DNA of 13,060 nt from Candidatus Heimdallarchaeota archaeon (GTDB lineage: Archaea; Asgardarchaeota; Heimdallarchaeia; JABLTI01), in NCBI GenBank assembly GCA_030614005.1, contig JAUWKS010000082.1, forward strand, positions 1-13,060, in the 5' to 3' direction. Shown one piece after another: positions 2,854 to 5,006 of this stretch. The translations under genes and the position numbers were made by a program. Position 1 is the stretch's first letter. Every line of letters starts with the position of its first letter. A model generated the notes under the pieces. The model was not told where the DNA came from, searched no databases, and saw only the letters and a program-made list of their open reading frames with translations.

Positions 2854-3822
2854 CTATTCCGCTGCCACTTTCTTCTTTGTGAAAGTTTCCTTCAACATAA
2901 AGATAAGGAAGCCTAAGAAGACTGCTATGCCAACATAACCAGCAATGGTCCAACTGCTAGCAAAAGCCAAATAGATTGCTAAGCCCATAATTGCCAAAGC
3001 AAAGACTATACCAAAGAATCCCCAGAATCGATGAGAACGGGAGACGGGATATTCTGCTCGGAGAACTTTTCCTCGGGCAGCATCAACTAATGCTTCGCCT
3101 TCCCAATCACCGTAACCATAAGTTACGCGATAAAAGGGCACATGTAAATAAGAAATTTCTTTCATATCTATTTTTTGATTTATGCCATCAATTTTCACAA
3201 TTTCTCGAAAAATCAATTGTTGATGACGATTCTTTACTTGCCCTTCAGCTATGGCATATGCGTCATTGTAACCGATTTGAGTGTCATAGATAACTCCTCC
3301 TTCGGCTTGAATTGCTTTGATATCAAATGCTTCTTTTGAACCTACAGGAATTTTCTCATCACGAATCTCTTTATATTGTTCTTTGTAACCGAAAATGAGA
3401 CAAGTTTGATCTAAATCAATTGAACCTTTTTCAGGTCGCTGATTGATATTAATATGTCTGCTCCATGAGGATGTTTGATTCGGACTTACGTATTTGCCCA
3501 TTCCTTTATAGTCAGTATGAGCATGGAATTTGAAAACCCAAAAAGGCATCATACGAAGTTCAAATTCTTTGAAGACTGTTTTGTCAGCAAAATCCTCAGG
3601 TACTCCGACGTATTTAGAAAGGTATTCCGGAATAAGCTCTGTAAGTTCAGAACCACTGAAGTACACTGATAACATATGGTGATTTTCTATTATTTCACCA
3701 CGTTCTAATTCATTTGGAGTTCCACAGAATTCACATGTTACCACAGAGGTAAAAGGAGGAACATCATTCTCTGCCTGACAATAACCACATTGTATTTTTT
3801 TAACTTGATTTTGTGTTGCCAT
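2854..3822 (-). CDS. Zinc-ribbon domain membrane protein, paralog 2 (N-terminal C4 zinc ribbon, central domain, C-terminal TM hairpin)
   Basis: CGYC-x14-CEFC near the N-terminus and two C-terminal hydrophobic helices (FWGFFGIVFALAIMGLAIYLAF; WTIAGYVGIAVFLGFLIFML). ATG 3822 preferred over the ORF-track start 3855 because SD-like GGAGCTGA (3838-3831) lies 8 nt upstream and the overlap with the upstream gene disappears. Confidence 0.85.
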   Translation of the reverse strand: MATQNQVKKIQCGYCQAENDVPPFTSVVTCEFCGTPNELERGEIIENHHMLSVYFSGSELTELIPEYLSKYVGVPEDFADKTVFKEFELRMMPFWVFKFHAHTDYKGMGKYVSPNQTSSWSRHININQRPEKGSIDLDQTCLIFGYKEQYKEIRDEKIPVGSKEAFDIKAIQAEGGVIYDTQIGYNDAYAIAEGQVKNRHQQLIFREIVKIDGINQKIDMKEISYLHVPFYRVTYGYGDWEGEALVDAARGKVLRAEYPVSRSHRFWGFFGIVFALAIMGLAIYLAFASSWTIAGYVGIAVFLGFLIFMLKETFTKKKVAAE

Positions 3823-3830
3823 CTTTGATT

Positions 3831-5006
3831 TCAGCTCCCTACAGTGTGCCCACATTTTTCACAGAATTTTTGATTCGGGTCAAGTGGGTCTCCACATTTC
3901 GTGCAAAATCCTGGCTTTTTTCCTGGTCCGCCAGTCGTTGGATGTTGTGTTTGTACTGGTTGTTTGACAGTTACTTTTTGGAAATCAAATAACGACACTC
4001 CAGTACCGCTAGACTTTATTTTATGCGGTTTATACGATCTTATGAGTAGGAAAATTGCTCCAACTATTCCTGCAAGAGCCAATACACCGAATACAATTAA
4101 AGCCCATATTTCTTCATTAGAGCCCATATAGAAATCATATCCTAACTGTGCAAAGACTGGTGCAGCTAGAAATCCTAATATTGCAATAAACACCATTAAT
4201 CGTCTATTCTTGATTGGTTGTTCTTCTCGAATTAATTGTCCAGAACCCCAATGATAAGCTGCACGATAAGATCTACCTTGTATTTTCCTTCTAACTAGAA
4301 GAAGAGGTTGATGTAACAATGCAGGTTTAGATAAGGGTTTGAAGTTAACATGTGTATCAAAAACTTCATGCATCTCAGATTTTGCTTGAGAATAAGCTGC
4401 TTCGTAAACTACTTCACCGGCTTTTTTAGCAGCTTCATCTTGTCCCCATTCAGGGCTTAAAGCTTCTAAAGAATGACTAGGGTCTTCACTAGCAAGCTTT
4501 TTAATAAACTCAGAATTAAATGGAATTGGATCTCCACCTAAGGATCTAGTAACATTGGAAATTAATTCGCCAGCACCAAACATAGTAAATTCCTGTCGGG
4601 CTAAAAATCGCACAGCATGAGTTCCATGATGTGTTATTCTCCATGGGCGATATTCTACAATCGTTTTGGTTTCTGTGTGTGTTTCACCACCACGTCGTAC
4701 AGTTTTTGTTTCAGTCCTTTCCCTTCTTTGATATCCTTTGGCATCAACATCCACTTGTGCTTTTACTTCAAAAAATGGTACCAAAATTAACTCCATTTTC
4801 CGGATGTCTCCAACTCCTTCAGGAGGTGTCAAAGGTAGGGGTTTAACAATTATATGAGGACTTACTGGACTTTCAGCGGTAATACCTCCACAGAAATTAC
4901 AGATATTTATAATAGATTCCGCAGAAGGTTTCATAGGTGCACCACAAGTTGAGCACCTAAGTGTTTTAACTAAGGTATGTGTGCCTTGATCACTCAATGA
5001 TTTCAC
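3831..5006 (-). CDS. Zinc-ribbon domain membrane protein, paralog 1 (N-terminal C4 ribbon, central domain, TM hairpin, extra C-terminal C4 ribbon)
   Basis: CSTC-x14-CNFC at the N-terminus, two TM helices, a Pro/Gly/Thr-rich linker, then CTKCG-x9-CEKCG. Start is GTG 5006 or TTG 4997 (the latter follows an AGGCGTGA SD-like sequence). Confidence 0.85.
   Translation of the reverse strand: MKSLSDQGTHTLVKTLRCSTCGAPMKPSAESIINICNFCGGITAESPVSPHIIVKPLPLTPPEGVGDIRKMELILVPFFEVKAQVDVDAKGYQRRERTETKTVRRGGETHTETKTIVEYRPWRITHHGTHAVRFLARQEFTMFGAGELISNVTRSLGGDPIPFNSEFIKKLASEDPSHSLEALSPEWGQDEAAKKAGEVVYEAAYSQAKSEMHEVFDTHVNFKPLSKPALLHQPLLLVRRKIQGRSYRAAYHWGSGQLIREEQPIKNRRLMVFIAILGFLAAPVFAQLGYDFYMGSNEEIWALIVFGVLALAGIVGAIFLLIRSYKPHKIKSSGTGVSLFDFQKVTVKQPVQTQHPTTGGPGKKPGFCTKCGDPLDPNQKFCEKCGHTVGS

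Follow-up and report, generated by a model that had tools for sequence, protein, structure and literature searches.

What would an Asgard archaeon do with two adjacent, diverged genes that each place a zinc ribbon at the membrane? The question is raised by contig C51 of a Heimdall-group Asgard genome (3.6 Mb, 90% complete), a sequence that recurs across cold-seep and marine-sediment metagenomes and that we analyzed as a single window, i.e., the entire contig of 13,060 bp. The two genes, here called A and B, lie on its minus strand, gene A at 5006..3831 (GTG start, 391 aa) and gene B at 3822..2854 (ATG start, 322 aa). A first reading of the letters alone (hereafter, the original prediction), which did not give the strand, had taken their products for an uncharacterized pair of paralogous zinc-ribbon membrane proteins, which might form a heteromer and either partner an SPFH scaffold encoded elsewhere or act independently of one. 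Our analysis confirmed the observation and supported its interpretation, with two corrections, which concern how far the family is characterized and how similar the two proteins are.

SPFH proteins, such as flotillins, stomatins, and prohibitins, organize membranes in all domains of life. In Bacillus, it is by way of such a protein, together with YdjG and YdjH, that PspA, a relative of ESCRT-III, is connected with the membrane. Asgard archaea are the closest known relatives of eukaryotes, and cryo-ET has revealed basket-like structures on their membranes (bioRxiv 10.1101/2025.11.06.686947). The answer that we favor, and that we hold to be marginally probable, is that A and B, as paralogs of the YdjG/SamG family, form a heterodimeric membrane anchor, or receptor, for the SPFH protein encoded on contig C91 of the same genome, the ensemble working as a scaffold independent of PspA and of TPM proteins.

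Two paralogs of the YdjG/SamG family

Homologues of A fell into about 30 clusters from Heimdall/Asgard sources (60–93% identity) and those of B into about 29 (63–95% identity). Three profiles were used: A1 for the gene A family (28 sequences), A2 for the gene B family, and A3 for a superfamily of 104 sequences. The Bacillus pspA-ydjGHI locus was located by means of a published ydjG primer (PMC8581546). Compared with Bacillus YdjG by hhalign, A3 gave a probability of 99.7% (E = 6.8e-26, 263 columns), and in hmmsearch it matched residues 47–339 of the same protein with E = 2.8e-47; the A2 hidden Markov model (HMM) matched residues 48–313 with E = 2.3e-9. A1 alone reached 86%, over the N-terminal 108 columns only. 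On the A3 and A2 matches, which extend over almost the full length of YdjG, we assign A and B by profile homology to the YdjG/SamG family.

It follows that the family is not wholly uncharacterized, as had been stated, since genetic and cell-biological data exist for its Bacillus member YdjG/SamG (PMC8581546, PMC13713150). The original statement that relatives are labeled PriA-like or TFIIB-type was accurate as far as the labels go, since both "DNA helicase PriA" and "TFIIB-type zinc ribbon" occur among them. The identities themselves were discarded, the Pfam and NCBIfam scans having returned ribbons only, with no TFIIB core and no helicase domain. Hundreds of database entries carry misleading annotations (PriA, TFIIB, holin, PepSY) that the family assignment corrects.

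Because the direct similarity between A and B is marginal, the case for their paralogy rests on intermediates. In BLASTP, the two proteins aligned over two collinear segments, one covering the N-terminal region and block 1 (E = 8e-4) and the other block 2 and the transmembrane (TM) region (E = 0.035), so that both of the shared blocks of the original prediction do align. A comparison of A1 with A2 by hhalign gave a probability of 71% (E = 3.7e-5) over 73 N-terminal columns only, and the B profile alone failed to find A in its own genome. However, the Prometheoarchaeum protein encoded at L006:6908-7999, beside a B-like gene, matched A1 (98.6%, E = 8.5e-16, 308 columns) and A2 (98.5%, E = 2e-15, 247 columns) alike, in both cases nearly over its full length, and a search of 1.8 billion proteins yielded dozens of representatives that scored on both HMMs. 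When run against the own genome, the A3 HMM retrieved B (E = 6.5e-93), A (E = 4.2e-41), and nothing else. The structural models of A and B also matched the same ESM-Atlas clusters (TM-score 0.45–0.61), including Bacillota clusters labeled "TFIIB-type zinc ribbon". Judged from these comparisons, A and B are two ancient, diverged paralogs of one family; the old duplication proposed at the outset is upheld by the intermediates, whereas the direct alignment lends it marginal support.

One further sequence was set aside. A 233-aa protein encoded on a 1.6-kb metagenome contig (P0062, L048:93-794) agrees with residues 1–174 of B but not beyond; it gave a ThiF match below threshold and is probably the product of a frameshift or an assembly artefact.

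No NCBIfam or Pfam model covers the core domain, for which the scans yielded the ribbons and sub-threshold PepSY matches. Foldseek searches of the PDB with either structural model gave no match reaching E 0.001. When the PDB was searched by sequence with A1, A2, and A3, zinc-ribbon matches or nothing came up, and a wide VIA-align search with the model of A returned generic helical hairpins matching residues 265–327, uninformative for the beta domain. The identity of the central domain, for which both structure and profile searches had been envisaged, was thus given by the profiles, which led to the YdjG/SamG family, the Foldseek search of the PDB having given no match at the threshold named.

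According to Ravi et al., YdjG is composed of zinc ribbons, a YpeB-related domain, and a TM segment (PMC11237479). The cytoplasmic beta-rich domain of A and B is possibly PepSY/YpeB-like, as the A/B family displays the helix plus four-strand unit and the terminal D-A-x-x-G-x-V motif. All PepSY (PF03413) matches lay below the Pfam cut-off: B reached 14.3 bits (E = 0.05) where the cut-off is 24, the B-like protein of Prometheoarchaeum had E = 4.6e-4, and 9 of the 104 superfamily members were at 0.01 or lower, the best at 4.8e-5. Moreover, PepSY domains are usually extracytoplasmic, whereas the domain of the A/B family is cytoplasmic by predicted topology.

In the 104-sequence alignment A3, the only invariant columns were the four ribbon cysteines and one proline. 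Overall, conservation is limited to the four cysteines and a few prolines, and apart from the former no polar residue is conserved across the superfamily. Because so little is conserved, A and B are most likely adaptors, not enzymes.

Architecture and predicted pairing

Protein A comprises, in order, an N-terminal zinc ribbon, a long charged beta-hairpin, a helix with a four-stranded sheet, a TM hairpin, a low-complexity linker, and a C-terminal Zn_Ribbon_1. Protein B comprises an N-terminal zinc ribbon, a helical insert, a beta domain, a TM hairpin, and a C-terminus in which VAAE is invariant and is preceded by a near-invariant run of lysines. The N-terminal C4 ribbons are encoded, on the minus strand, at 4890..4955 in A (C18, C21, C36, and C39) and at 3724..3789 in B (C12, C15, C30, and C33). 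Their spacing is exactly the CxxC-x14-CxxC originally reported, with 14 residues between the CxxC pairs in both proteins. None of the four cysteines of B varies; in alignment A1, the same is true of C36 and C39, and the first cysteine pair is missing in three sequences that are truncated at the N-terminus. In total, A contains eight cysteines and B four, all within CxxC motifs.

The C-terminal TM hairpin claimed for both proteins was recovered by hydropathy and as helical hairpins in the AlphaFold2 (AF2) models; it spans residues ~270–322 of A (4041..4199, minus strand) and ~269–315 of B (2878..3018, minus strand). By hydropathy, the helices fall at residues 270–288 and 304–322 of A and at 269–287 and 297–315 of B, the corresponding AF2 helices being 268–295 and 300–325 in A and 262–288 and 292–314 in B. 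In each protein, a short loop joins the two helices. Basic stretches flank the hairpins (KNRR and RSYKPHKIK in A, SRSHR and KKK in B), and just 4–15 residues are predicted to be exposed outside the membrane. Because positive charges flank both TM helices, the N-terminal domain and the C-terminus of A and B are predicted to be cytoplasmic. This positive-inside pattern and the cytoplasmic zinc ribbons fit the cytoplasm-facing, membrane-tethered arrangement that had been put forward.

The AF2 models, with predicted local distance difference test scores (pLDDT) of 74.8 for A and 65 for B, show the same order of elements, namely ribbon, long beta-hairpin, long helix, four-stranded sheet, and helical hairpin. 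In the model of A, the beta-hairpin (residues ~92–125) is longer than in B and highly charged.

The C-terminal Zn_Ribbon_1 of A (PF13240, residues 367–388, E = 5.7e-7; C368, C371, C382, and C385), which the original prediction did not mention, is encoded at 3852..3905 on the minus strand. It was present in all 28 aligned close homologues of the same lineage (A1) and missing from all 18 A-like proteins of other Asgard lineages that were examined, and it is 46% identical to the ribbons of the SPFH protein of the same genome. One may speculate that A gained this ribbon in a lineage whose genes are unlinked, which would hint that ribbon-type contacts matter for assembly.

The pairing of A and B was assessed by complex prediction, using A(1-335) together with B and three controls. 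The interaction prediction score from aligned errors (ipSAE) was 0.61 for A–B, as compared to 0.31 for the best of the three controls. Of 80 solved complexes, 58 attain the mark of A–B, as do 2 of 110 mismatched pairs, counts that hold only roughly here because our own alignments were used. The A–B runs agreed in at least 90% of the contacts, with a partner pLDDT of at least 82. The predicted interface involves both cytoplasmic domains and all four TM helices, and invariant positions make up 54% of the residues that A contributes to it, among them 116–121 and 214–218, compared with 22% in the rest of A (p = 5e-6). The model supports binding of A to B as a heterodimer, in agreement with the heteromer originally suggested.

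The tandem pair is as tightly coupled as had been described. The stop codon of A (TGA, 3833..3831) is followed by a gap of 8 nt before the start of B, and a Shine-Dalgarno-like GGGAGC, read from the sequence at 3839..3834 (minus strand), falls within the last two codons of A, 12 nt 5' of the B ATG. The start of B was set at 3822 because every homologue begins at a MATQ-type start; a longer open reading frame (ORF) from 3855 was rejected as unsupported.

Signals around the two genes are consistent with a discrete unit. A consensus scan found a terminator-like hairpin followed by a T-rich run at 2838..2821 (minus strand), 16 nt past the B stop. The shared terminator of the original prediction is thus there to be seen, but it is weak evidence taken alone, the scan having found 4 sites against 1.5 expected. 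Another hairpin, with a 9–11 bp stem (5122..5143, minus strand), lies at the end of the upstream copper ATPase gene (copA). Because one hairpin closes copA and the other follows B in the consensus scan, A–B looks like its own transcription unit, which suggests transcription separate from copA. A TATA-like TTTATA, also read from the sequence, occurs at 5057..5062 (minus strand), ~50 nt 5' of the A GTG, and is a candidate archaeal promoter of the A–B unit. Between this box and the start of A lies a short inverted repeat, GGGAT-ATGC-ATCCC (5037-5055), which may be an operator or a product of chance.

As for the other genes of the window, the minus-strand segment 5133-7851, directly upstream of A, encodes a copper P-type ATPase (826 aa, two HMA domains) and a 74-aa HMA chaperone. 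A plus-strand ORF of 249 aa at 2-751 runs to the contig start; its product apparently has several TM segments and gave no Pfam match at E 0.1 or better.

The proposed SPFH partner and competing explanations

The SPFH partner whose gene had been placed, as one option, elsewhere in the genome has a candidate of the matching type at C91:6084-7061. This gene, the single strong Band_7_1 gene of the genome, lies on another contig than the pair and encodes a protein of 325 aa (Band_7_1, E = 3.7e-24; DZR, E = 1.4e-9) that lacks a TM segment and carries a double ribbon at its end.

In other organisms, relatives of the pair do adjoin SPFH genes, as the original prediction had said. This was seen in Prometheoarchaeum, two metagenomic genomes, a Bacteroidota genome, and Bacillus; in the latter, a TPM-domain gene (ydjH) also stands beside the relative, again in agreement with it. 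In Prometheoarchaeum (L006) and in the two metagenomic genomes (L007, L008), the order is a Band_7_1 gene with zinc ribbon, then the A-like gene, then the B-like gene. The neighborhood survey pointed the same way: among 20 further Asgard loci, sampled from several families, 18 contained a complete pair, the A-like gene coming first and the B-like gene following at -8 to +31 nt (in the other two, the contig end was reached or the B-like gene only was found), and in 5 of the 20 an SPFH gene lay within 8 kb of the pair. In family f11, the SPFH gene is often on the contig of the pair, 7–60 kb away.

When 300 Asgard genomes were sampled, 159 contained the YdjG-like family and 145 a Band_7_1 match. 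By family, pair and SPFH gene were found, respectively, in 9/10 and 9/10 genomes of f1, 3/3 and 3/3 of f6, 4/4 and 4/4 of f8, 76/76 and 60/76 of f11, 19/19 and 17/19 of f17, and 6/6 and 6/6 of f23. Both were present in f1, f2, f6, f8, f11, f12, f17, f23, f27, and f28, and most other families had neither; the Band_7_1 matches in f4 and f20 were weak and partial (E ~1e-11). Because related genomes are not independent samples, this co-occurrence is suggestive and does not amount to statistical proof.

The partners that accompany YdjG in Bacillus were also looked for. In the own genome, at its 90% completeness, there was no match to PspA/IM30 (PF04012) or to TPM (PF04536), the control search for the latter matching 8 of 14 reference genomes. 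Three Snf7-type ESCRT-III matches were found.

Experimental evidence for recruitment comes from B. subtilis alone, where it was obtained by deletion and microscopy: once ydjG or ydjH is deleted, neither YdjI, a soluble SPFH protein, nor PspA forms foci at the membrane any longer (PMC8581546). Baur et al. renamed the Bacillus proteins SamGHI, and SamG and SamH are described as recruiting SamI (PMC13713150).

Based on the Bacillus homology, the gene linkage in Asgard genomes, and the phyletic co-occurrence, we propose that A and B serve as a receptor in the following way. In each protein, a zinc ribbon and a beta-rich domain would face the cytoplasm, kept at the membrane by a two-helix hairpin of which few residues reach the outside. 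The two proteins, translated from a single, tightly coupled transcript, would assemble, as in the complex model, through their cytoplasmic domains and a four-helix TM bundle. The heterodimer would then be the membrane receptor to which the soluble Band_7_1 SPFH protein of contig C91, with its C-terminal ribbons, is recruited. Together, A, B, and the SPFH protein may form a sub-membrane scaffold for membrane maintenance or remodeling, without PspA and without a TPM partner.

Several observations weigh against this proposal. In the own genome and in three relatives of its family, no SPFH gene occurs within ~9 kb of the pair, and the SPFH link in this lineage is suggested by co-occurrence among genomes that are not independent. 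The two-hybrid contacts reported by Scholz et al. were G–H, H–I, and H–PspA, meaning that in Bacillus it is YdjH (the TPM protein), not YdjG, that contacts YdjI and PspA, while YdjG contacts YdjH (PMC8581546). The absence of a TPM gene from the own genome is therefore a difficulty: without YdjH, either the second paralog takes its role or the wiring differs. On the structural side, invariant residues are no more frequent at the interface of B (29%) than in the rest of the protein (35%), and the confidence of the AF2 models is middling (pLDDT 75 for A and 65 for B).

Given these difficulties, it is worth considering whether the pair acts without SPFH in this lineage, for instance as a membrane-tethered sensor or regulator, with the ribbons binding nucleic acid or a signaling partner and reporting the state of the membrane. 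The pair is indeed unlinked from the SPFH gene in its own family, and the extra C-terminal ribbon of A was gained in this lineage only. In Bacillus, loss of ydjG or ydjH causes cell-shape defects and loss of ydjI does not (PMC8581546), and Baur et al. propose a SamGH sensing and signaling complex that is restrained by SamI (PMC13713150). Nevertheless, no DNA-binding or output domain is present, the 4–15 exposed residues would make a poor extracellular sensor, and at the family level the pair and Band_7_1 co-occur tightly, all of which leads us to consider such a role rather unlikely. The chromosomal neighborhood raises a different thought. In the own family, the gene order is HMA, CopA, A, B, CN_hydrolase (nitrilase-like), epimerase, and NOG1 GTPase, a synteny not found in other Asgard families; the stretch from HMA through epimerase is kept in Heimdall contigs down to 63% B identity, as if the pair belonged with the copper-export genes (HMA chaperone, CopA) as cysteine-rich membrane proteins that sense or handle the metal. 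The CxxC motifs, which take up all eight cysteines of A and all four of B, would suit this function, but they supply the structural ribbon ligands common to every family member, Bacillus YdjG included. In addition, a terminator-like hairpin stands between copA and A, and the synteny is confined to one family: no close CopA or HMA homologue was found near the pair in the 20 other Asgard loci or in L006-L008 and L012, and the one distant P-type ATPase match lies ~5 kb from the pair, in L033. A copper role thus appears very improbable.

It is even harder to credit that A and B are holin-like or pore-forming membrane proteins. The idea draws on one NCBI record, which names a B homologue "phage holin family protein", and on weak Foldseek rows for A that include beta-pore-forming toxins. 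The latter appear because of the long beta-hairpin of A, and their E values were above 0.05, with a probability of at most 0.11 and a TM-score of at most 0.11. Furthermore, the genes sit in conserved chromosomal synteny near housekeeping genes, and their homology is to YdjG, not to holins.

Some loci that contain the proposed anchor and its SPFH protein also encode a helical protein of ~185–230 aa, a family that shares a conserved PGWRGYR-type motif and is not covered by any Pfam model. In family f17, its gene lies between the pair and the SPFH gene (in L031, the order is A, B, helical protein, SPFH), and in L008 it lies directly upstream of the SPFH gene. Its coordinates are L031:8345-8899, L027:11111-11677, L026:12434-12979, and L008:6226-6909; the own genome has one copy, at C67:32-712, unlinked to the other parts. 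In one Asgard genome, an inserted IS605 OrfB/TnpB-type gene (L026:11101-12282) separates the pair from the helical and SPFH genes, illustrating a way in which the module can come apart. In two unrelated genomes, a 96-aa AN1-like zinc-finger protein is encoded adjacent to the Band_7_1 SPFH gene (L007:7678-7968 and L019:11218-11508), the L007 copy having a predicted C-terminal TM helix; a single-sequence query did not find this protein in the own genome.

We can only offer as a long shot the further idea that, in PspA-less Asgard archaea, A/B and the Band_7_1 SPFH protein, possibly joined by the helical protein, constitute a sub-membrane platform that recruits the helical protein or Snf7-type ESCRT-III to damaged or remodeling membrane, and that the link from SPFH to ESCRT-III is older than the split between archaea and bacteria. 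If true, such a platform would bear on membrane organization in the eukaryotic lineage. In any event, the YdjG-type anchor family is widespread among Asgard archaea. It occurs there as a conserved pair of the heterodimer type, whose distribution follows that of a YdjI-like SPFH protein and which lacks PspA and TPM partners, and A, B, the SPFH protein, and the helical partner make up a concrete set of proteins for the study of Asgard membrane scaffolding.

Comparison with known systems

Bacillus YdjG (SamG), encoded in the sigma-W operon pspA-ydjGHI (pspA-samGHI), has in common with A and B a cytoplasmic C4 ribbon, a beta-rich domain, and a C-terminal anchor, and in all of these proteins the beta-rich domain ends in an H-P-W ... 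D-A-x-x-G-x-V ... E-P block. The Bacillus and Heimdall systems both go with a soluble Band_7_1 SPFH protein bearing a low-complexity linker and a C-terminal zinc ribbon. However, Bacillus has one YdjG with two N-terminal ribbons, whereas here two paralogs have one N-terminal ribbon each. Unlike the Bacillus protein, A and B are anchored by a clear two-helix hairpin, and A has an extra C-terminal ribbon. The genomic context also differs, since neither a TPM partner (YdjH) nor PspA turned up in the own genome, where the SPFH gene is also unlinked.

Within the Asgard archaea, Ca. Prometheoarchaeum syntrophicum MK-D1 (CP042905.2; the B-like protein is DSAG12_01088) shows the same A-then-B order and tight coupling, and its A-like protein contains the same charged beta-hairpin insert as A. 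In this organism, a Band_7_1 gene with four ribbons lies directly upstream, in the same orientation, and the A-like protein is devoid of the C-terminal ribbon.

The same superfamily includes Bacteroidota proteins of ~370–400 aa that are named "DNA helicase PriA", "CHY-type", or "LSD1" zinc-finger proteins (E ~1e-72 to 1e-78 against A3). There is one copy of the Bacteroidota relative, which has two N-terminal ribbons but a single TM segment. In Rhodocytophaga, the one Bacteroidota locus examined, the family member is near a Band_7_1 gene, which lies two genes upstream; the SPFH protein there has GYF_2 instead of ribbons, and a 137-aa protein with two TM segments is encoded between the SPFH gene and the family gene.

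The Asgard pair was not described in the published literature that we searched. While the family itself is known, the A/B pair is a duplicated form of the YdjG-type anchor, PspA-less and TPM-less, whose parts are dispersed in this genome.

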